Below, in pieces: positions 32,658-54,226 of a stretch of 64,000 nucleotides of DNA. Made by a program: the position numbers and the translations under genes. Numbering within the stretch: position 1 is the first letter of the stretch; each line of letters begins with the position of its first letter. The notes beneath the pieces were generated by a model. The model had not been told where the DNA came from. It searched no databases and saw nothing but the letters and a program-made list of their open reading frames with translations. This stretch comes from Chitinivibrionales bacterium (GTDB lineage: Bacteria > Fibrobacterota > Chitinivibrionia > Chitinivibrionales > WJKA01): assembly GCA_038247415.1 (NCBI GenBank), contig JBBRUX010000001.1, positions 1 to 64,000 of the forward strand. The letters run 5' to 3'.

Positions 32658-33245
32658 TCATTTCCTGTCTAAAGTACAATCGCGTATTACAATATTTAAA
32701 ATGGGCTCATTCTTCAAAATTCTATTAAGCTCTTTTTTGACAAGAGGCGCTAAAACTGCTGGTTTCATCTCCGAGAGCGCTAGCTTCCCCACTGAACCAA
32801 CAATCAGACCTCGTAATTCTTCCCTTTTAAAGAGAATCTCCTTGCGTCGGTTCACATCAGAGAATTGACAATCAACATTCATCACTATCGAGAGATCGGG
32901 CCGATCGAAAACAACACTGCGAACGGCAGCGAATGTTATGGTTTGCAAAGGCTTTGCGAAAGACATGGTATCGACAATTGAAACAGGCGCAGCCGCAGGG
33001 CCTTGCTCTGGCTTATGCATTACCCCACCCGGCATACTATCAGTGCTCGAAGCGGCTGCGACACTTTGGTTGGCAGGTTTGGTCTTAGGAGTCCATCGCT
33101 GCAAAACACTTTTTAAACCATGCATCGGCAGTGCGTCTCGATTATTATAAACCACAATCCCCGCAAGACAGAGCACTACTACACTGATTATAATTCGCCT
33201 GACACCCTGCTTTTTTTTACTTTGTTCCCATGATGGCTCGTTCAT
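32658..33245 (-). CDS. FliL-like single-pass membrane protein
   Basis: N-terminal TM and linker. C-terminal [13 protein letters not shown]...[22 protein letters not shown] follows the FliL C-domain pattern. Confidence 0.55.
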
Positions 33246-33252
33246 GCGAAAT

Positions 33253-33585
33253 TTACTCTCGCCCAATTTCACCCACGATACCACATTTTAATTCAACACC
33301 TTTAGAGTAGGCATCGACAAGCGCATTAATGCTTGCATGCATTTCAGGCGATACCTCAATAAATTCTAAACCCACCCGGTAGCCATCTAATCGGGATGTT
33401 GTATGCCGAACAATTGCTTTGCACACGATAGCATTAAGCTTAACGGTTACAAAAGCCCCAACTTCAAGATTTTTTGTGAACAGACACGCAACGCCATGTG
33501 AGCTTAAATCAAAAAAATTCAACTGATTGTCAACCAGATCGATATTCTCGACCCGCTCTTCGACTCGATCAGATTCTGAATTCAT
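33253..33585 (-). CDS. Stand-alone PilZ domain protein
   Basis: RxxxR (RVEER), DxSxxG (DLSSHG) and GLEF motifs. Confidence 0.85.
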   Translation of the reverse strand: MNSESDRVEERVENIDLVDNQLNFFDLSSHGVACLFTKNLEVGAFVTVKLNAIVCKAIVRHTTSRLDGYRVGLEFIEVSPEMHASINALVDAYSKGVELKCGIVGEIGRE

Positions 33586-33617: not shown

Positions 33618-34688
33618 TTACGACTGCCCCTCAAATGCGAAGGGGAAGACTACTTCCACAGGCCCGCCCCCGCTTATGGGGGTAAACATCCATCGTTGCA
33701 CAAACCTTACAACCATGTCCTCAAATTCGGGGTTATTCATGGTTGATTTAGCAATGGAAACACTTGCCACAGCGCCGGTTGGCAAAATAGTAAAGCGAAT
33801 TTTTATCTGACCTTTAAGCTCGGGATCTTGCTTAAGCCTATTTTCGTAGATGCGTATAAGCCGAACCTTTTCACGATCGATCACTTTTTGAATAGAGGCC
33901 ATTGAACGTTCTTCGGAAGAAGCAGATTCGCCCTTGATTTCTGGCGGTGCACTACTGGTAATATTAACACTGCCACCAGCTACGATACTTCCTCCCGATG
34001 CGCGACCAATTGCCGATTGACTGAGCACAACACCACTTGTTTTTGCACCTCGACTTTCCTTAATATCGGATGCGCTTATCCCGCGCGAAGCCGCAGCAAA
34101 GGTACCCTTAGATACCTTAAGATTTTGCAAATCGGCTATGCCATCTCCATTTGCAGCCCCCAGTAAATCGTTTACCCTACCACCACCACCGCCGTTTGCG
34201 GTTGCCGTTATTGCAGCAAATATCCCAGTTGATTGTACTTGCGCTGCAACTTGTTGACGAACCGATTCGCGCGTTGCGCTGCTTGCTACCCGACGGGTTT
34301 CTCGCTCTTTGAATGTTTCTTTTTCTCTGTCAACAGGGGCAGCTTCGGCTGGCTTCTCTTCGGTAGTTTGTGCCTGCTCTTGCGCCTTTGGCGTTATTTC
34401 TGTTGGATTTGGAATTTCTTGAGGCTTTGGCACGGGTTGATTAAGCACGATGCTTGCATAACGCTCTTGAAGCTTAAGAATTTGAGCATCGGTCATTACA
34501 TCGGATTGTTTACGAAAAGAAAGAAGATACACCGATAACCCTACAACAAGAAGCGAAATGCCAAAAAGGAGCACAAAACGAGGCTCAACCTTCCCAAATA
34601 GGCGCGACCGTAACTCACGTGGAAAGCTCGTAGGCTGTCCAGCTGCAGCGTTCTGCATGAGAAAAATGCCAGTAGAATCGCTTGCCAT
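33618..34688 (-). CDS. TonB-like energy transducer with AgmX/PglI (GltG/GltJ-type) C-terminal domain
   Basis: TM, Pro/Glu-rich and Gly-rich linker, C-terminal YENRLKQDPELKGQIKIRFTILPTG.V...STMNNPEFE...RW.F...V.FPF.F. Confidence 0.85.
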   Translation of the reverse strand: MASDSTGIFLMQNAAAGQPTSFPRELRSRLFGKVEPRFVLLFGISLLVVGLSVYLLSFRKQSDVMTDAQILKLQERYASIVLNQPVPKPQEIPNPTEITPKAQEQAQTTEEKPAEAAPVDREKETFKERETRRVASSATRESVRQQVAAQVQSTGIFAAITATANGGGGGRVNDLLGAANGDGIADLQNLKVSKGTFAAASRGISASDIKESRGAKTSGVVLSQSAIGRASGGSIVAGGSVNITSSAPPEIKGESASSEERSMASIQKVIDREKVRLIRIYENRLKQDPELKGQIKIRFTILPTGAVASVSIAKSTMNNPEFEDMVVRFVQRWMFTPISGGGPVEVVFPFAFEGQS

Positions 34689-34693
34689 GGCTC

Positions 34694-35194
34694 CTATTTC
34701 CGATATACTACCAGGTTCATATTAGGAAACCCGGCCTGCCCGCAGGTATACATAACACGGGTCAGGATATTATAAGGAATTTCTTCGTCACCCTGAATCG
34801 AAATTTTTCCAGAAAATTCGGTTTTAAACATTGCAGCCGATTTACGCGATTCAACTTCAAATTTTTTAAGAACGTCATACAGCGGCGCAATCATAAAATC
34901 TTTTTGCAGTGTAAGTTGTTCAAAACCTGCAGCGTCAATAACGGTGGCATTTTCTACCATGATAGAATTTTGTGACACCTTTACAGACAATGCTTCCTGC
35001 GCGATTGTTTCGACGCTGGACTTGGGAAGCATAAGCCCTTGCGCAGGAGTAACCATTTGCCCTTGAGACGAATAGTTTTGCAGCAAAAACACAACCATGA
35101 GGGTGAACATGTCAATCATGGAGGTGATATTGAGTTTTACTGTCCCATCACCCTTGCGACGGCCTCTGCCGCGTTGCGTACGAGAACTCGGCAT
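34694..35194 (-). CDS. exbD: ExbD/TolR family protein (AglS-like)
   Basis: LNITSMIDMFTLMVVFLL TM with conserved Asp, LPKS, IQGDEEIPY..L..VM.TCGQAGF. Confidence 0.9.
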   Translation of the reverse strand: MPSSRTQRGRGRRKGDGTVKLNITSMIDMFTLMVVFLLQNYSSQGQMVTPAQGLMLPKSSVETIAQEALSVKVSQNSIMVENATVIDAAGFEQLTLQKDFMIAPLYDVLKKFEVESRKSAAMFKTEFSGKISIQGDEEIPYNILTRVMYTCGQAGFPNMNLVVYRK

Positions 35195-36492
35195 TATTGA
35201 ACGATCCCTCCGGCTATCGACACATTCGGAAAGAGCGTAACAACCCCGCCATCGGTTTTAGCCCCGCGGGCAGCATCCATTACTGCAACAACGGTCTGAT
35301 ATTTGATCTTTTCTTCGGCAACAATTTTTATCGATTCATTGTCGGGAAAAGTCGTAGAACCGCTCAAATCTTTTGAAATATACGCCTTGTAAAGTTCTAT
35401 GAGGGTGGCATCGGGCCCCACCGTGAAATACGCTTTGTCAATTTCATAGAGTGCTTTGCGCTTCACCTCGCACAGAGCCTTGTTGAGCGCTTCTAAATCG
35501 TATTTTCCATCCGATAAAAGCGGGATGTCTGGTTCACCAGGAGCCTGGGATCCTGCCTTACTGGCTTCGGTTTTATAATAATGAAAAAGATTAAAACCTT
35601 TGGCAGTAATAACTACTCCAACTTCAAGCTTTGTTTCCAGTGCAGCTACCGAAGACCCGCCACCACCACCACCCGAAGCTTCGGGCAATTTGAGCTCGAT
35701 GCTTCCAATTTTTACAAATTCTGATGAAGTAAGCAACACGGGGATAAGAATAACCATAAGGTTGAGCATGGGCGTAACGTCTGCATCAGCAGCTTCTTCT
35801 TCGCCACTACTGCGCCTGGTGAGTGTGATCTGTTTTTTCTGATTAAACTCGGGTGGATTGAGAATATTGAGAATCGCAACAGCATACCGATCGATCTCAA
35901 CCAGAACAGCATCTACGCGTGCTCGTAAAAAAGCATACGCAACAACGCATAAAACAGAAATCGTCAAGCCAACAAGGGTAGAATTCATTGCCGCAGAAAT
36001 ACCCGCAGCAAGCAATGCAGATTTTTCTGTTGCTTCTATGTTAGGTTGGCTCACTGCAGAAAAAGACATTATCAGACCAAAAACAGTTCCAAGGAGTCCA
36101 AAGAGTGTCGAGACATTCCCAAACATTACCATTATGCCCAAATGTCGTTCGAGGGCTGCATTCATATGGGTAGACTCTTCGGACATTGCCCCCATGACAA
36201 GTTCGGGAGATTCCTTAGACTTTTTTATACCCGAAGCAAGAATGCGCGGAAGAGCCCGTTTTCCCCCTGCGGCACATACCTGATAGGCTCCATCGATATT
36301 TTTTTCGTAGACAAGTTTCTTGACCTTATCAAAAAGTGCCAGAGCATCGTAGTCGGAGTAGGCTCCAATTGCTAGCCATCGTTCGAGGGTAATTAAGGCC
36401 CCAATAATACCAATAACCGCCAGACACCACATGAATATGAAGGCATCATGACTAGGGAAAAAACATTTGGCAAGTTCGGGAAGAAAATCCAT
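35194..36492 (-). CDS. ExbB/TolQ::ExbD/TolR fusion protein (AglR-AglQ-like)
   Basis: Residues 1-210 are MotA/TolQ/ExbB-like (GNVSTLFGLLGTVFGLI, GISAAMNST). After about 25 aa of linker comes an ExbD-like part (DVTPMLNLMVILIPVLL...LKLP...IVAEEKIKYQTVVAVMDAAR). One uninterrupted ORF. Confidence 0.88.
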   Translation of the reverse strand: MDFLPELAKCFFPSHDAFIFMWCLAVIGIIGALITLERWLAIGAYSDYDALALFDKVKKLVYEKNIDGAYQVCAAGGKRALPRILASGIKKSKESPELVMGAMSEESTHMNAALERHLGIMVMFGNVSTLFGLLGTVFGLIMSFSAVSQPNIEATEKSALLAAGISAAMNSTLVGLTISVLCVVAYAFLRARVDAVLVEIDRYAVAILNILNPPEFNQKKQITLTRRSSGEEEAADADVTPMLNLMVILIPVLLTSSEFVKIGSIELKLPEASGGGGGGSSVAALETKLEVGVVITAKGFNLFHYYKTEASKAGSQAPGEPDIPLLSDGKYDLEALNKALCEVKRKALYEIDKAYFTVGPDATLIELYKAYISKDLSGSTTFPDNESIKIVAEEKIKYQTVVAVMDAARGAKTDGGVVTLFPNVSIAGGIVQ

Positions 36493-36509
36493 GTGATATC
36501 AGATCCGTT

Positions 36510-36532
36510 GCGTCATGACAATGTCATGCCGC
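36510..36532 (-). other. Intergenic hairpin between exbB and the exbB::exbD fusion
   Basis: GCG-T-CATGAC-AAT-GTCATG-C-CGC on the plus strand, no U-tract. Confidence 0.45.
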
Positions 36533-36535
36533 GTG

Positions 36536-37303
36536 TCAGATGTTTACTTCTTTAATGAGCTTATTGTCGGTAAAAATCTTGATATTATTATGCGTCACAT
36601 GAATACCAACACCTTCTTTAAGCTGTGTTGCTGCAATATGGTATTTATGTGTTTTATACGATTTTTCGACAAGTGCATTAACCACCCGCAATGAGTGCTC
36701 ATCGAGCTCATCGATAATCTTTTGTGTTTTTGCCTTGATAAGAGCAAAAATCATGATTGCTGTAATAGCAACCGAGAGTCCCGAAAATGTTGAATTCATA
36801 GCAGTAGCAATACCAGCAGCCAAAAGCTCGGACTTTTGCGCAGCATCGATACCAGGTCGTCCCACAGCGGCAAACGACATGATAAGACCATACACGGTAC
36901 CAAGCAGCCCGAGCAAGGTTGCAACGTTTCCTATCACGGCGAGATAGCCAGTTCGTTTTTCGAGCTCGGGAATAATTCGGAGCATTCCTTCATCAATCGC
37001 GTTGCGAATTCTATCGGCACCAGAGTTTGCCTCGTCAAGGCCGGCTTTAACAACACCCGACAGTGCCATTTTTCCTGCCTTGCCGCAAATCTTGAGAGCT
37101 CCGGGTATATCGTCTTTTTCGATTGACGAAAGAATATTCTTCATAAAAAGGTCTGCTTTGTAGCCCGAGCGGGACATAAGATACAAAAGCCGTTCAACAG
37201 CAATCGAAAAGCAAAATACGCCTACAACCAAAATCGACCACATAAAAAGAAAGGCATCAGATTTTGGATTAAATGAAGCAAAAAGTTTTCCAACGAATTC
37301 CAT
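36536..37303 (-). CDS. exbB: MotA/TolQ/ExbB proton channel protein (AglR-like) with about 40 aa C-terminal extension
   Basis: AVERL, LEKRTGYL..IGNVATLLGLLGTVYGLI.SF, GIATAMNST. GGAGG RBS. Confidence 0.92.
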   Translation of the reverse strand: MEFVGKLFASFNPKSDAFLFMWSILVVGVFCFSIAVERLLYLMSRSGYKADLFMKNILSSIEKDDIPGALKICGKAGKMALSGVVKAGLDEANSGADRIRNAIDEGMLRIIPELEKRTGYLAVIGNVATLLGLLGTVYGLIMSFAAVGRPGIDAAQKSELLAAGIATAMNSTFSGLSVAITAIMIFALIKAKTQKIIDELDEHSLRVVNALVEKSYKTHKYHIAATQLKEGVGIHVTHNNIKIFTDNKLIKEVNI

Positions 37304-37526: not shown

Positions 37527-37859
37527 TTAGGGCTGATAATTTGATATGGCTCGACCAGAAAACTGGAAGGCGCCATCATATGAAGATTTCTGCAACACAG
37601 AAGGATCAACAAAATCCACAATATTTCCGCCTTTTCCAAGACTTTGAATAACCATCGGCGCAAACTCGGGACGCTGATCGGCCTTAATGAGCACAAGCTG
37701 AGGGCGACGGATTTTCCCTTCGATTTTCTGCTCTTCAAAAACAAGCTTTTTAACAGACTTACCTGAGGTTGTGGCACCAAGAGCGCCAAAGCTTGCCCCG
37801 AGCATGCTCAAACAGACAAAAAAATATTTAAGCGCAAATTGGTTTTTGGGAAAATTCAT
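37527..37859 (-). CDS. Small secreted protein, CglF/GltF-like
   Basis: Signal peptide, then KKLVFEEQKIEGKIRRPQ, resembling the GltF F....IEG...KP motif. First gene of the motor operon. Confidence 0.55.
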   Translation of the reverse strand: MNFPKNQFALKYFFVCLSMLGASFGALGATTSGKSVKKLVFEEQKIEGKIRRPQLVLIKADQRPEFAPMVIQSLGKGGNIVDFVDPSVLQKSSYDGAFQFSGRAISNYQP

Positions 37860-49205: not shown

Positions 49206-50549
49206 TTATAACCCCTCGACCTGGGCAAGCATCGTTTTTACTTTATCAAGGGCTTCAAAATATTCACTTTTCTCAAGAACATCCTGTCGCATGAATTCAG
49301 TCATGGGACCATGCAACTTTATGGCCTTATCGACCCGTGCGTTGCTCCCGGTAGCATAGGCACCGATTTGTATTAAGTCTTCGTTTTCTCGGTATGCAGC
49401 TAAATAATCTTTGATGCGCGATGCAATTTTCTTATGGTCTGCAGAAATGACATCACTCATACACCGAGAAATTGATTCCAGGATATCGATGGCAGGAAAA
49501 TGATTACGATGTGCCAATTTACGAGAAAGAACCAGATGCCCATCCAAAATAGACCTGGCAGCATCTGCGATGGGTTCATCCATATCATCACCATCAACGA
49601 GTACGGTAAAAATTCCTGTTATCGTTCCTCGGTCAGAAGTGCCTGCTCGCTCAAGAAGTTGAGGCAGCATCGCAAATACCGATGGCGTATACCCTTTTGT
49701 TGCAGGAGGCTCTCCTATAGCAAGGCCAATTTCCCGCTGTGCCATGGCAAGACGCGTTATGGAATCTACCATAAAAAGGACATCTTTTTTCTGATCCCTA
49801 AAATACTCTGCTATTGTGGCCGCTACCATTGCCCCTTTAAGTCGAATAAGTACCGGTTGATCTGATGTTGCAACAATAACGATTGATCTTTTTAAACCTT
49901 CTTCCCCCAGGTCCCGTTCGATAAACTCCCGGACTTCTCTTCCCCGTTCGCCAATAAGAGCAATAACGTTAATATCTGCTTTGCAATGCTTAGCCATCAT
50001 ACCCATGAGAACGCTTTTGCCCACTCCGGACCCTGCAAAAATACCCATGCGCTGGCCTTTACCAATCGACATCATTGTATCTATTGATTTTATCCCCGTT
50101 TCAAATATATCCTTTATTCTTGTTCTGGTAAGGGGGTTGGGTATACGGGAAAAAACGGGTCTAGATTGCTGTAGTGCAAGTGGGCCTTTTCCATCGAGGG
50201 GATTTCCTAAACCATCAAGGACTCTACCGCACAAGGCATCGCCCACTTCAACAAGAAGGGGCTGTTTTGTCGAAACAACGGTGAGACCCGGATGAATCCC
50301 TTCGATATGTCCAAGCGGCATTAAAAGCGTTGAATCTTTACGAAACCCAACAACTTCGGCACGTCCAACCACACGTCCATTTTTTTCCAGTAAACATACA
50401 TCGCCAACAGAAGCGTTGGGCCCGTTTGCTACAATCAGAAGTCCAATAACTTCTACAACTTTTCCATGAATGCGTATTGGGTCGGTGTTCGCTAATTGAC
50501 TAAAAAGCGGTGCATAGATGGAATCGAGATCAAGCAGCTCGGGCGCCAT
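49206..50549 (-). CDS. fliI: Flagellar export ATPase FliI
   Basis: GQRMGIFAGSGVGKS, LIGERGREV, DSITRLAMAQREIG, ILDGH. Confidence 0.97.
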   Translation of the reverse strand: MAPELLDLDSIYAPLFSQLANTDPIRIHGKVVEVIGLLIVANGPNASVGDVCLLEKNGRVVGRAEVVGFRKDSTLLMPLGHIEGIHPGLTVVSTKQPLLVEVGDALCGRVLDGLGNPLDGKGPLALQQSRPVFSRIPNPLTRTRIKDIFETGIKSIDTMMSIGKGQRMGIFAGSGVGKSVLMGMMAKHCKADINVIALIGERGREVREFIERDLGEEGLKRSIVIVATSDQPVLIRLKGAMVAATIAEYFRDQKKDVLFMVDSITRLAMAQREIGLAIGEPPATKGYTPSVFAMLPQLLERAGTSDRGTITGIFTVLVDGDDMDEPIADAARSILDGHLVLSRKLAHRNHFPAIDILESISRCMSDVISADHKKIASRIKDYLAAYRENEDLIQIGAYATGSNARVDKAIKLHGPMTEFMRQDVLEKSEYFEALDKVKTMLAQVEGL

Positions 50550-50564
50550 GAATTGATTCCTGAT

Positions 50565-51416
50565 CTAGATGGATTCGTGCGGATGAGAAGTAATTTGATC
50601 ATACTCGTTTGGCTTTATTGTTTCCCAGAATTTTTCTACAAGCTCAGAAAGTTCATCAAAAACAACCCCAAGCCTTGAATCTGCAGAGCCAGAATTAGAT
50701 TCGATAATGCAACCACCCGCCTCGATAGTAGGATCTGAAATAATGGTTATGCCACTTATCTGTTCCCCTTCGGGCAACCAGGCTTCTTTGTTAGTTTTAA
50801 TAATATCACAAAGCGAGGGAGATACGCGAACAATAACACGTTGACGTTCTGCTACATACGAGAGAGTTTTTTTAACGATATCGATAATATGATCGGGCTT
50901 AATGGTAAGTTCTGCAGCAACAACCTTTCGAGCACACGCAAGCGACAAATTAACAATCATATGATGCGCATTTGCAAGAACAGTATCATGCTGTAGCGCC
51001 ATTTTTTCTACGCTCTTGCGTACAATGTCCTGGATCCGACCAACGCGTTCGTTAAAGACTTTTTCGGAAGCGCTGTGCCCTTCGAGGTGTCCTTGTGCAC
51101 TTCCTTCGGTAAAGCCCTTCTGATACGCTGCATTCAATACATCTTTAGACCGTTTTTTTTCCGCCTCCAACTCTGCTTTTAATTGAGCGACCTGTTTTTC
51201 GACCTCTAGAACATGCCGCTCTTCATCGGAGAACGAAAGCTTTGCCCCTTCATCCTTGCGGAATTCATCGTAACCAATTGGTTGACAAGGAAAAGACCCT
51301 GCAGATTCCCGTTTATTTTTAAGAATTCGACGCAAGCCTATAACGGCTGGATCGGGGGTGGTAAGAATTGTATCTATGAGCGTTGTAATATCGGAAGATG
51401 ACATAGTTGCATTCAT
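50565..51416 (-). CDS. fliH: Flagellar assembly protein FliH
   Basis: AY..G...G...G repeats, VRVSP, GGCIIES..G..DSR. Located between fliG and fliI. Confidence 0.9.
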   Translation of the reverse strand: MNATMSSSDITTLIDTILTTPDPAVIGLRRILKNKRESAGSFPCQPIGYDEFRKDEGAKLSFSDEERHVLEVEKQVAQLKAELEAEKKRSKDVLNAAYQKGFTEGSAQGHLEGHSASEKVFNERVGRIQDIVRKSVEKMALQHDTVLANAHHMIVNLSLACARKVVAAELTIKPDHIIDIVKKTLSYVAERQRVIVRVSPSLCDIIKTNKEAWLPEGEQISGITIISDPTIEAGGCIIESNSGSADSRLGVVFDELSELVEKFWETIKPNEYDQITSHPHESI

Positions 51417-51483
51417 AGGGAGCTCGCTATGACAGGGGTGGTATACCTTATATTCATTCTAGATTGTACCATTCAAGCGAGCA

Positions 51484-52563
51484 TCAAACTACAATTTCTT
51501 CTTCGCCTCCACGTCCGGAAATAATGATTTCTCCATCTTCCTCCAAACGTCGAACGACATCGACAATGCGTTGCTGTACATCCTCGACATCTTTGAGACG
51601 CACTGGCCCCATAATTTCCATTTCTTCTTTTATCATTTCTGCGGCGCGTGAAGACATATTCTTGAAGAACTTGGTTTGTAGCTCTTCGGAAGCACCCTTG
51701 AGGGCCATGGAGAGTTCCTTGGTATCGATTTCTTTGAGTACGCGCTGCATTGCACGATCGTCGAGCAAAAGGACGTCCTCGAAAACAAACATAAGATTTT
51801 TGATTTCGGTGGCCAACTCGGGATTTTCGCGCTCCAAATTGCCCAAAATATTTTTTTCTGCACCGCGATCAACATTATTGAGCATTTCTGCAACAGCTTT
51901 AACGCCGCCAACCTGAGAGACATCACCACCAAAAAGCGATTTCATCTGGCCTGCAAGTACTTCTTCGACCTGTGCGAGTGTATCGGGTGAAATCGATTCC
52001 ATGGTCGCAATGCGTGTGGCCACATCGACTTGTAATTCTTGAGGGAGAGCCGAAACAATTGCCGCTGCATTAGGTGCATCCATGTGTGCCAGAAGTAAAG
52101 CAATAGTTTGCGGATGTTCTTTTTGAATAAAATTGACAAGCTGCTTAGGATCAACATTTTCGAGAAGATTAAAACCAGTGGTTCGAATAGTTTGCTGAAT
52201 TTTTTCGAGAATCTCTTTTGCCTTACGTGAACCCAGTGCTGATTCGAGCACCTCGCGAGCGTAATCGATACCACCCTGGCTTATATATTGCGAAGCCATG
52301 GCAAGGTTATGAAACTCTTCGAGAACCGCCTCGCGTATATCGGGCGGAACATTGTTAAGCTTTGCAATTTCTGTCGATAACATTTCGACTTCGGGCTCAT
52401 CGAGATTTTTGAAGATCTGAGACGATGCTTCGGAACCGAGGGCAACCATGACAATTGCAGCTTTTTGAGGACCAGGTAAACGTGCAGCTATAGAACCAGG
52501 TACCGCAGCACCATTTTTCTGACTTTCCCCGCCGTAATCTTCCTTGAAAAATCCTTGTGGCAT
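51484..52563 (-). CDS. fliG: Flagellar motor switch protein FliG
   Basis: QKAAI, GGIDYA, EHPQTIA, MFVFED, NMSSRAA, GPVRLKDVE. Confidence 0.97.
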   Translation of the reverse strand: MPQGFFKEDYGGESQKNGAAVPGSIAARLPGPQKAAIVMVALGSEASSQIFKNLDEPEVEMLSTEIAKLNNVPPDIREAVLEEFHNLAMASQYISQGGIDYAREVLESALGSRKAKEILEKIQQTIRTTGFNLLENVDPKQLVNFIQKEHPQTIALLLAHMDAPNAAAIVSALPQELQVDVATRIATMESISPDTLAQVEEVLAGQMKSLFGGDVSQVGGVKAVAEMLNNVDRGAEKNILGNLERENPELATEIKNLMFVFEDVLLLDDRAMQRVLKEIDTKELSMALKGASEELQTKFFKNMSSRAAEMIKEEMEIMGPVRLKDVEDVQQRIVDVVRRLEEDGEIIISGRGGEEEIVV

Positions 52564-52642
52564 GATGCGCGCATTCTTCCTTGATGCAAAGTATTATTTA
52601 AATCTGTTTATACAGTATATCTCAATAATTCAGATACATCCA

Positions 52643-54226
52643 TTAGTTTTTACCTTTTGATCCCGATTTAGCCGGAGCCACTCCAACCGGGATTTCACGT
52701 AACCACTCACGGATAATGGATGCTATATTGATAGGTTCTTCTCGCGTCAACATTTCGACACGCTCAAGAATCTCGGAGCTTCTGCGCAACTCTTCGGGAA
52801 CTTCTACCGGCACATCTTCGGGCATACCCAGCAACTCAACACGGGGAACCGGTGGATTAAGAGCATCGGCAATGGTTTTTGCAACGCTGCGTAAAAACAG
52901 AATGAGCAAAATTGCAAGAATGAAAAGTGCGGCATATTTTGCAACAGTCAACTTGAATTCCATATCGTCCTGACTTTTCATCTCTTCGCGCTGATCTCGC
53001 ACAAATTCATTGTCAAAATGCAAGTTAGTCACGGCAATCTGGTCGCCTCGCGCAACATCGTATCCTACTGCATTTTTAACAATATTTTCGATTGCACCAA
53101 TATCATCGGTTGTTCGTGCAACATAGACAGGTTTGCCATCCTTGCCTTTTTCGTATTTTCCATCAACAACAACCGATACCGTCATCCGCTTGATATTGCC
53201 AATTTCCCCAATCACATGCTCTACGGTTTTGTTAATTTCGTAATTGGTGAGCGATTTTTCTTTCTGTTGATCGCCATCGGGTGCATTTTTAACATTTTCA
53301 TCGGTTCGTTCTTCCGATCGGACAACTTTACTTTCGGGATCAAATTGCTCTAACGTTCTTTCGACCCGATCAAAATCCATATCAAGTGATACTTTAAGAT
53401 TTGATTTACCAGGCCCTAGTACCCCTTCAAGCATCCCCGCTGCCTTATTTTCGAGATAGCGCTCGACATTTTGCTGCAATTCAACATTTTGGGAACTTGC
53501 CATTGAACTGGGATCGCCCGAAAAAGGGCTCGTTAAAAGTTTGCCTTCAAAGTCGACAATAGCAATATTCTCGGGCTTTAATCCTTCAACGCTCGACGAC
53601 ACAAGGAACATGATTCCGCGTACTTTATCTTTTGGAAGATCGCGCCCCGGCACGGTGCGCACAACAATCGATGCCTTAGCATCTTTTTGATTGTCGAGAA
53701 AAATGGTTGGTTCTGGAATCACAATATGCACACGAACCGATTTGACTTCGTCAAGACCTTCAATGGTACGTTGAAGCTCGCCTTCTAATGCCCGTCGCGC
53801 ATTGACTTTTTGGACAAAATCGGTCATTGCCAAATTTGTTTTATCAAAAATTTCATAGCCCACACCATGCGATTTTGGAAGTCCGTCACGTGCTAAAGAC
53901 ATACGAACTTCGTAAACCTTTTTAGCATCCACCATAATTGTGCGGCCTTCGTTTTCAATCTTGTATTTGTAACGGCCGTCATCGAGCTTTTTAATAATCT
54001 GACCAGCTTCATTAAGCTCTAGGTCGGAATAAAGCGTTTTATAGCCGGCAGGGCTTCCCGAAGATCCTGTCCCCGAAACTGCAGAATTTGCAGTCCAGAT
54101 AACCAGACTCATGAGCCCTATTGCGGTAAAGGTCACAAGTGCAACGGTAATTACTTTTTGCTGGAGAGAGAGTTTTTGCCAGATTGCCGAAAGTTGGGCT
54201 AAAAGCTGCTTAAAAAATTCTGCCAT
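52643..54226 (-). CDS. fliF: Flagellar MS-ring protein FliF
   Basis: GYEIFD, RALEGELQRTI, RVHIVIP, VSSSVEGL, NYEINK, AVGYD..RGD. Confidence 0.97.
   Translation of the reverse strand: MAEFFKQLLAQLSAIWQKLSLQQKVITVALVTFTAIGLMSLVIWTANSAVSGTGSSGSPAGYKTLYSDLELNEAGQIIKKLDDGRYKYKIENEGRTIMVDAKKVYEVRMSLARDGLPKSHGVGYEIFDKTNLAMTDFVQKVNARRALEGELQRTIEGLDEVKSVRVHIVIPEPTIFLDNQKDAKASIVVRTVPGRDLPKDKVRGIMFLVSSSVEGLKPENIAIVDFEGKLLTSPFSGDPSSMASSQNVELQQNVERYLENKAAGMLEGVLGPGKSNLKVSLDMDFDRVERTLEQFDPESKVVRSEERTDENVKNAPDGDQQKEKSLTNYEINKTVEHVIGEIGNIKRMTVSVVVDGKYEKGKDGKPVYVARTTDDIGAIENIVKNAVGYDVARGDQIAVTNLHFDNEFVRDQREEMKSQDDMEFKLTVAKYAALFILAILLILFLRSVAKTIADALNPPVPRVELLGMPEDVPVEVPEELRRSSEILERVEMLTREEPINIASIIREWLREIPVGVAPAKSGSKGKN

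Follow-up and report, generated by a model that had tools for sequence, protein, structure and literature searches.

A recurrent ExbB–ExbD fusion with an Asp-less ExbD helix in Fibrobacterota and its proposed place in an asymmetric 5:2-type motor

How would an ion motor work if one of its ring subunits and one of its axle subunits were a single polypeptide? Ion motors of the 5:2 type (MotAB, ExbBD, TolQR, GldLM, ZorAB) are thought to rotate a ring around an axle, a view that is still under debate for the Ton and Tol systems. The question is raised by a gene on the minus strand of a 64,000-nucleotide stretch of DNA (hereafter, the window), which comprises positions 1 to 64,000 of contig JBBRUX010000001.1 from a Chitinivibrionales bacterium of the phylum Fibrobacterota (GenBank assembly GCA_038247415.1). 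A first-pass annotation, made by a model from the sequence and its open reading frames (ORFs), described this gene as a fusion of ExbB to an ExbD whose helix lacks the essential Asp, and proposed that four free ExbB subunits, one fusion, and one free ExbD form a motor in which the tether limits rotation. The explanation that we favour, with moderate confidence, is that an inherited fusion of ExbB to an Asn-type (Asp-less) ExbD works in an asymmetric 5:2-type motor composed of four free ExbB, one fusion, and one Asp-bearing ExbD.

The ORF at 35194-36492 is one continuous frame of 432 amino acids with no internal stop, and is a genuine gene in which a ring-subunit part is joined to an axle-subunit part that lacks the Asp. 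Its parts, in the order of the protein, are:

35860..36492, minus strand: ExbB/TolQ-like domain of the fusion (residues 1-211), with three transmembrane (TM) helices and cytoplasmic helices, delimited with Pfam, AlphaFold2, and Foldseek.
35779..35859, minus strand: cytoplasmic linker of the fusion (residues 212-238), read as a former ExbB C-terminal tail plus a former ExbD N-terminal tail, with no stop or start-like codon.
35725..35778, minus strand: ExbD-type TM helix of the fusion (residues 239-256), with Asn244 at the position of the family's Asp.
35194..35724, minus strand: Gly-rich spacer (residues 257-283) and ExbD-like periplasmic domain (about residues 290-429, with a helical insert), ending in the stop codon at 35194-35196.

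Pfam MotA_ExbB matches residues 81-200 (E 9.5e-23; 80.8 bits, cut-off 22.9), which places the first part in the MotA/TolQ/ExbB ring family, and Pfam ExbD (PF02472) matches residues 232-412 (E 5.1e-12; 46.4 bits, cut-off 25.4). The linker text reads NPPEFNQKKQITLTRRSSGEEEAADAD, as originally quoted, and residues 206-241 are free of in-frame ATG, GTG, and TTG codons. All elements of the first-pass description of the gene proved correct when the ORF, the Pfam matches, and the codons were checked: a single frame joins the two domains, Asn244 of the fused ExbD helix is encoded by AAC (35761-35763, minus strand) while the separate ExbD has Asp (GAC, 35111-35113), and a free ExbB paralogue of 255 amino acids lies upstream (36536-37303, minus strand). 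In an alignment of the ExbD TM region, Asn244 falls in the Asp column of the partner ExbD. The fused ExbD part thus departs from PF02472 in two ways, as its TM helix lacks the hallmark proton-binding Asp, and it is continuous with ExbB instead of being a free-standing small protein with a cytoplasmic N-terminus.

An AlphaFold2 model of the fusion, computed from a 50-sequence alignment, has a mean predicted local distance difference test score (pLDDT) of 84.3. Residues 1-211 (pLDDT 85-97) adopt the TolQ/ExbB fold of three TM helices and long cytoplasmic helices in this model, with one helix (154-211) forming TM3 and its cytoplasmic extension. The linker (212-238) is disordered (pLDDT about 48-52), as is the Gly-rich spacer at 257-283, and residues 290-429 (pLDDT 92-97) are ExbD-like, with helices at 333-355 and 364-373. 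A Foldseek search with the ring part placed TolQ first (9ddm_E; E 4.1e-6, TMt 0.70) and also retrieved ExbB (5sv0_C; E 4.9e-5, TMt 0.69), and profile matches to the PDB gave TolQ (8odt, 3.5e-14) and ExbB (5sv0, 1.2e-11).

The same architecture is found well beyond the window. A search of 5.8 billion proteins returned 264 matches, and all 120 matches listed contain both Pfam domains, measure 401-449 amino acids, and share 53-100% identity with the query; the named matches among those listed are metagenome-assembled genomes (MAGs) of Fibrobacterota, Chitinivibrionales, or Chitinispirillaceae, and automatic names given by the Joint Genome Institute (JGI) already cite both domains. An exhaustive HMMER search identified 11 near-full-length fused representatives (408-439 amino acids) with identities down to 34%. 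Near-full-length open frames free of stops occur in 51 of 201 Fibrobacterota genomes, and four more are truncated by contig ends. In Fibrobacter proper, the family designated f10 (78 genomes), the whole fusion as query gave ExbB-level matches only (best about 1e-29), and the ExbD part alone gave no match at E <= 1e-3 in two complete genomes of that family. FSU_2400-2403 of Fibrobacter succinogenes, a possible split orthologue, are up-regulated on cellulose according to the portion of the source available (PMC6851124).

To compare loci, one genome per species was scanned, giving 79 loci that were annotated with phmmer; counts below that refer to 68 fused-locus rows or 87 partner-ExbD rows include 12 duplicate loci. 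The fused operon is present in 56 of the 79 loci, whose titles are those of Fibrobacterota, apart from one Raymondbacteria record and a few oddly labelled MAGs. In all fused loci of sufficient length the order is free ExbB, fusion, Asp-bearing ExbD, and TonB-like protein. In the window, the three partners of the fusion are:

36536..37303, minus strand: free ExbB/TolQ-like ring subunit, 255 amino acids, Pfam MotA_ExbB E 2.4e-24, with a conserved 40-residue C-terminal tail.
34694..35194, minus strand: free Asp-bearing ExbD, 166 amino acids, Pfam ExbD E 9.7e-15, with Asp28 encoded by GAC at 35111-35113.
33618..34688, minus strand: TonB-family protein, 356 amino acids, with an N-terminal TM anchor, a Pro/Glu-rich spacer, and a C-terminal TonB_C domain of AgmX/PglI (GltG/GltJ) type.

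Could the fused frame be an artefact of assembly or sequencing, in which a lost stop or a frameshift merged two genes? Errors or decay of this kind do happen, as one relative (6.1 Mb, 20 contigs, 81% complete) has the gene split over three or more frames and interrupted by an in-frame TAG (C11:797923-799987), which could be due to assembly frameshifts or to a decaying copy. Against this explanation, many studies contribute to the 51 of 201 genomes and the 56 of 79 loci that show the same fused frame, and other assembled data match the window. The first-pass annotation had called for a check of the data across 35760-35880 and for a search for relatives of the same architecture, and both came out in favour of the gene: contigs from three runs of one study cover the region with no differences or indels (two of these runs are possibly the window's source), and the contig of the third sample spans 35745-35912 with no differences from the window. 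Because the architecture recurs in many independent assemblies, it lies far beyond chance or assembly error, and we regard the probability of an artefact as negligible.

The remaining 23 of the 79 loci, from KSB1 and Calditrichota, carry a split operon in which an ExbB of about 216 amino acids is followed by an Asn-type ExbD, an Asp-type ExbD, and a TonB-like protein. The first ExbD of these operons is homologous to the fused ExbD part and the second to the free ExbD, and none of the 23 contains a second ExbB. An independent KSB1 sample, retrieved with the Asn-type protein alone as query, revealed an Asn-type ExbD in 49 of 61 genomes, with exbB upstream and an Asp-type gene downstream in 28 of 30 fetched loci.

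These loci allowed the Asp position to be followed in both contexts. In the TM-region alignment of 56 fused proteins, the column of Asn244 holds Asn in 46, Ser in four, and Gly in six; Asp never occurs. The free Asn-type ExbD of the split loci has Asn in 23/23, the partner ExbD has Asp in all 87 rows, and the 30 loci of the independent KSB1 sample gave Asn in 30/30 Asn-type proteins and Asp in 30/30 partners. The conservation of Asn, which the first-pass annotation had proposed to check, stands as a consistent absence of Asp (56/56), but not as an invariant Asn. The Asn, Ser, or Gly at this second site may mimic a permanently neutral Asp.

The genome that contains the window encodes further systems of this kind. 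Split operons with the Asn-type and Asp-type pairing lie on contigs C6 and C35. The one on C6 consists of ExbB (208 amino acids), an Asn-type ExbD paralogue of 268 amino acids with a long insertion in the periplasmic part (C6:40098-40904, plus strand), Asp-type ExbD (167), and a TonB-like protein (456). An orphan Asp-type ExbD lies at C35:1394-1873. On contig C54 (20026-23729, minus strand), an ExbB (210 amino acids) and an Asn-type ExbD (161 amino acids) have no adjacent Asp-type ExbD; the pair is followed by a 601-amino-acid ORF that has a GTPase-like P-loop, and by an ORF with the Plug domain of TonB-dependent transporters. An operon on C15 contains two Asp-type ExbD genes, and a classical locus of TolQ, TolR (with Asp), TolA, and TolB is found on C45. 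Since the Asn-type and Asp-type proteins are paired in split operons, including those of the same genome, the sequence comparison marks the Asp-less ExbD as a distinct subfamily that predates the fusion. The literature search retrieved no paper describing an Asp-less ExbD subfamily or a heteromeric axle without the conserved Asp.

To examine the origin of the fusion, a quick maximum likelihood tree of 133 ExbB sequences was determined, with paralogues from the same genome as outgroup. The ExbB parts of the fused proteins (54 sequences) form one clade (SH-aLRT 99) and the free ExbB sequences (51) another (96); the two are sister clades (support 91), and the 23 split-operon ExbB sequences fall outside them. 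The fused and free clades also branch as mirror images, pointing to co-divergence. The junction carries traces of two former genes. Between the equivalents of D201 and P241 there are 38 residues in 44 of 53 fused proteins (range 37-43), and in all 23 split loci the ExbB tail and the ExbD head sum to 35-36 residues. In the linker of the more divergent fusions one can still make out M-A-Y/F-K/R-P-S-x-R-R, the N-terminal motif of the free Asn-type protein, and in-frame junctions consisting of a stop, three nucleotides, and ATG occur among the split loci. Loss of the stop in such a junction adds three residues, so the length of the junction fits stop-codon loss.

In these comparisons the fusion has a single origin and is vertically inherited, and its history is explained most simply if, at the root of the fused clade, exbB was duplicated once and a stop codon was then lost. 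The ancestral operon would have been exbB, exbD (Asn-type), exbD (Asp-type), and tonB-like, an order still present in KSB1 and Calditrichota, and would have encoded a 5:2-type proton motor with a heterodimeric axle in which a single Asp carries protons. Later, exbB would have been duplicated in the ancestor of the fused Fibrobacterota, and the downstream copy would have lost its stop and run into the Asn-type exbD.

Stop-codon read-through in the split operons was also considered. It was suggested by the gap between exbB and the Asn-type exbD, which is a multiple of three in 23/23 loci, and was dropped when the gap proved to be a multiple of three in only 5 of 28 loci of the unbiased sample. 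The 23/23 pattern arose because those loci had been ranked with the fused query; ranking loci with a fusion as query favours in-frame gene pairs, which calls for caution in such surveys.

Several observations indicate how the fusion may be assembled. First, a free ExbB accompanies every fusion. Solved ExbBD and TolQR complexes contain two axle helices, and a ring built entirely of fusions would bring five, so the free exbB gene would be needed. Second, the fused and free ExbB co-diverge. Third, T136 (TM2) and T172 (TM3), which we take to correspond to the pore-lining Thr residues of E. coli ExbB/TolQ, do not vary across 50 fused sequences or across 33 ExbB sequences of the free and split kinds. 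Fourth, the ATG of the Asp-bearing ExbD overlaps the stop of the fusion (TAATG); such a stop/start overlap is found in 45 of 54 fused loci, and at the junction between Asn-type and Asp-type genes in 1 of 22 split loci. Finally, in split operons the one ExbB encoded has to work with both ExbD types. Together these point to a 4+1:1+1 assembly. The fusion, its conservation, its single origin, the Asn/Asp split, and the operon context are shown by the data; this assembly, its single-site proton use, its output, and the geometry of its linker are inferred. The pentamer would consist of four free ExbB and the ExbB part of one fusion, and the pore would hold the fused Asn-type helix and the helix of one free Asp-type ExbD, leaving one proton site. 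The fusion would thereby fix one Asn-type axle per ring, and the motor would energise the adjoining GltG/AgmX-like TonB-family protein.

The free ExbB is exactly 255 amino acids long in 51/51 fused loci and ends in a very strongly conserved 40-residue tail (window 36536-36655, minus strand; consensus S.KT.K.HI.A.QLK.G.G.HVT..NIKIFTDNKL.KEI) that is missing from the split-operon ExbB of about 216 amino acids. An AlphaFold2 model of this protein (mean pLDDT 83.3) places three beta strands at 232-237, 240-245, and 248-254 with pLDDT 58-70, and the tail may form a cytoplasmic cap with the linker of the fused subunit. The possibility that the tail is a relic of a fused ExbD was rejected, as hhalign gave E 0.15 against the Asn-type and 0.21 against the Asp-type (probability under 1%).

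A complex prediction was made for residues 225-432 of the fusion with the free ExbD, using custom alignments and three controls. The median score was 0.45 and the best control scored 0.00, contacts agreed by at least 83% between runs, and the partner had a pLDDT of at least 66. The mark for this test is reached by 116 of 157 solved complexes and by 2 of 215 mismatches, and scores of 0.60 or under among the passes account for 18 of the 157 solved complexes and for both passing mismatches. The result weakly supports pairing of the fused ExbD part with the free ExbD; as structures of ExbD/TolR dimers have been solved, it could stem from resemblance to these only.

A different division of labour would place the fused protein in a complex of its own that conducts no protons, for example a homopentamer with two Asn-type helices inside the pore and three outside. 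The motor would then consist of the free ExbB and the Asp-bearing ExbD, and the role of the fused complex could be that of a scaffold, a plug, or a regulator. The Asn-type helix has no carboxylate, and the ExbB and Asn-type pair on C54 lacks an Asp-type neighbour, both of which suit such a complex. It fits poorly with the single ExbB that has to serve both ExbD types in split operons, with the invariant pore-lining Thr residues retained in the fused ExbB, with translational coupling that joins the fusion, and not the free ExbB, to the Asp-bearing ExbD, and with the mirror-image trees of the co-diverging ExbB paralogues. We therefore hold a separate complex of this kind to be improbable.

Several points weigh against the asymmetric motor with four free ExbB, one fusion, and one Asp-bearing ExbD. 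First, the E. coli ExbD D25N variant is reportedly inactive and dominant-negative, so an axle with one Asp is not obviously functional without co-adaptation. Second, the sole complex test covered the two ExbD parts and came out weak, and the ExbD TM helix of the fusion (239-256) is of low confidence in the monomer model (pLDDT about 50-60). Third, the C54 pair suggests that Asn-type subunits may also act in other combinations. Fourth, the conserved length of the linker may merely mirror the conservation of two tails that are equally constant in the split operons. Finally, the tree comes from a quick search and not from a finished careful one, and there was no RNA run among the seven runs that contain DNA of the locus.

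What would the tether mean for rotation? In the solved ExbBD architecture, the C-terminus of ExbB and the N-terminus of ExbD are presumably both found in the cytoplasmic vestibule, close to the five-fold axis, and this position fits a junction for which three extra residues suffice. The roughly 27-residue disordered linker would run in the vestibule near the axis as a leash or a swivel; it would mark one ring subunit, and rotation would not necessarily stop. The first-pass annotation had proposed that the tether would limit continuous rotation and imply a ratchet or power-stroke motor, or else processing of the linker. In its strict form, this mechanical reading has the tether forbid continuous rotation, so that motors of this family would oscillate through a limited angle, ratchet, or deliver a power stroke by way of the single ion-conducting helix. 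Ring and axle do belong to the same chain, the short linker between them is constant in length (38 residues separate the conserved anchors in 44/53 proteins), and Asp is present in just one of the two axle helices. Nonetheless, a lone flexible chain near the axis can swivel about its backbone bonds, and by analogy the tether need not halt rotation. F1-ATPase provides a precedent, as it goes on rotating with the C-terminal helix of gamma joined to the stator by a disulfide, a covalent rotor-stator link through a single unwindable chain near the axis that the authors, in the part of the paper available, describe as a swivel joint (PMC3536650); it is a different motor with an artificial disulfide, and serves as an analogy only. 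In addition, the N-terminal tail of the other axle subunit would have a free end, so no permanent entanglement would be forced, and the tails are equally long in the split operons, so that constant length is no sign of a tight leash. Of the motor first proposed, then, the composition of four free ExbB, one fusion, and one Asp-bearing ExbD agrees with the operon, the split relatives, and the coupling, whereas a limit on rotation is not compelled. That a natural rotor-stator tether has been kept since the base of the fused clade as a leash preventing full turns seems to us unlikely, if less so than the separate complex discussed above.

A further possibility is that the fusion is a device for co-production, with the linker cut after membrane insertion to give a normal ExbB and an Asn-type ExbD. 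The linker is disordered and exposed in the AlphaFold2 model, and the split form with the same tails is, judged by its conservation, functional in other phyla. Set against this, no conserved cleavage motif stands out in alignments of the linker, and the extra free exbB, which cutting would render needless, is kept in every fused locus that is long enough and has acquired a conserved tail of its own. The fused state also persists down to 34% identity. Processing of the linker accordingly seems to us about as improbable as a separate complex, and an intact fusion within the asymmetric motor remains the reading that we prefer.

Whatever the motion of such a motor, its architecture would be informative. 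With one ring subunit marked and attached covalently to one of two axle subunits that differ from each other, both pseudo-symmetries are broken, so that in cryo-electron microscopy every rotational register would be distinguishable, and the tether itself is a natural test of the need for full turns. If it does act as a leash, a branch of the Ton/Tol-like 5:2 machines uses back-and-forth or limited-angle strokes with a single proton site, and continuous rotation is no universal requirement of the 5:2 motor class. The comparison also brings to light a large, apparently unstudied ExbD subfamily without the proton-binding Asp, both fused and free, in at least three phyla of the Fibrobacteres–Chlorobi–Bacteroidetes (FCB) group. 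Its members always pair with an Asp-bearing partner; one proton site per motor would therefore be a common natural design and not a defect. Being compact, the set of four genes at 33618-37303 lends itself to heterologous expression and to structure determination.

Among known systems, the Ton motor ExbB5-ExbD2-TonB of E. coli (5sv0, 6tyi, 9ddo) shares the ring fold, the ExbD domain, and an adjacent partner with a TonB_C domain. Unlike the Ton motor, the system described here has ring and axle covalently joined, two paralogues each of ring and axle, and Asn in one axle helix, and the fusion falls short of the exbB equivalog TIGR02797 (40.6 bits against 206.2) and of ExbD_2 TIGR02804 (20.5 against 123.45). 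TolQ5-TolR2-TolA (8odt, 9ddm, 9kpz) provides the best structural and sequence match to the ring part of the fusion; in contrast to Tol-Pal, neither Pal nor TolB lies beside the fusion, the Tol locus of the genome is the separate one on C45, and the fusion scores below the equivalogs for tolQ (51.8 bits against 221) and tolR (21.3 against 127.3).

By analogy, the closest functional counterpart is the AglR5-AglQ-AglS-GltG motor of Myxococcus xanthus, for which the accessible part of the source describes a TolQ-like pentamer, a predicted heterodimer of unlike TolR-like subunits, and a TonB-like partner (PMC11761067). Its two unlike TolR-like subunits and one TolQ-like ring protein are matched here by the Asn-type and Asp-type ExbD, and the TonB-like protein of the window has a C-terminal domain of AgmX/PglI type (NCBIfam NF033768, 81.2 bits against a cut-off of 40). 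This protein also passes PF03544 TonB_C (34.8 bits against 24.6) and TIGR01352 (43.2 against 27.1), and falls below the GltG equivalog (99.9 bits against 650) and likewise below the TonB equivalog; its gene follows that of the Asp-bearing ExbD in both fused and split loci. A fusion, by contrast, is not reported in Agl-Glt, and no GltD, GltE, GltC, or tetratricopeptide repeat (TPR) neighbours were seen beside the fused operon. Within the Fibrobacteres, Luciano et al. reported one member that has homologues of the Agl/Glt core (PMC3169522).

Operons with two ExbD genes are also described elsewhere in the FCB group. BT2665-BT2668 of Bacteroides thetaiotaomicron encode one ExbB, two ExbD, and TonB, according to the section of the preprint at hand (bioRxiv 10.1101/2023.07.07.548152). 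Such exbB, exbD, exbD, tonB operons are unfused and have the gene order seen in KSB1, in Calditrichota, and in the paralogous operons of the genome studied here. In the literature outside subscription journals and supplements, no paper was found on a natural ExbB-ExbD, TolQ-TolR, or MotA-MotB fusion. A 2025 survey of MotAB relatives in mBio makes no mention of a fusion, an aspartate, or a heterodimer, and PMC12204202 mentions other fusions, not ExbB-ExbD.

The operon extends beyond the four genes considered so far. On the minus strand the order is 110-amino-acid ORF, free ExbB, fusion, Asp-bearing ExbD, TonB-like protein, PilZ protein, 208-amino-acid protein, and secA, and the additional members are:

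37527..37859, minus strand: small ORF of 110 amino acids with a hydrophobic N-terminus, at the head of the fused operon, with no Pfam family.
33253..33585, minus strand: PilZ-domain protein, 110 amino acids, Pfam PilZ E 1.4e-7, 32.2 bits against 22.5.
32658..33284, minus strand: membrane-anchored protein, 208 amino acids, no Pfam match, the last gene before secA.

Of the 68 fused-locus rows, 44 have a homologue of the 110-amino-acid ORF ahead of the free ExbB, whereas none of the 23 split loci has one, and this protein is probably a further, undescribed component. Weak homologues of the 208-amino-acid protein occupy the same position in about 25 of the 68 rows, and PilZ homologues lie 3' of the TonB-like gene in about 30. 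The motifs RVEER and DLSSHG of the PilZ protein fit RxxxR and DxSxxG, which we take to be the motifs with which PilZ domains bind cyclic di-GMP (c-di-GMP). YcgR and FlgX on flagellar stators offer an analogy, by which the protein may exert c-di-GMP-dependent control of the motor as a brake or clutch; PilZ proteins bind the stator units of flagellar motors, as stated in the accessible part of PMC11725899. Six ORFs with a Plug domain were found in the genome, none of which adjoins the fused operon. Elsewhere in the window (49206-54226, minus strand), outside the ExbB operon, lie genes for the flagellar proteins FliF, FliG, FliH, and FliI, and the organism is probably flagellated.

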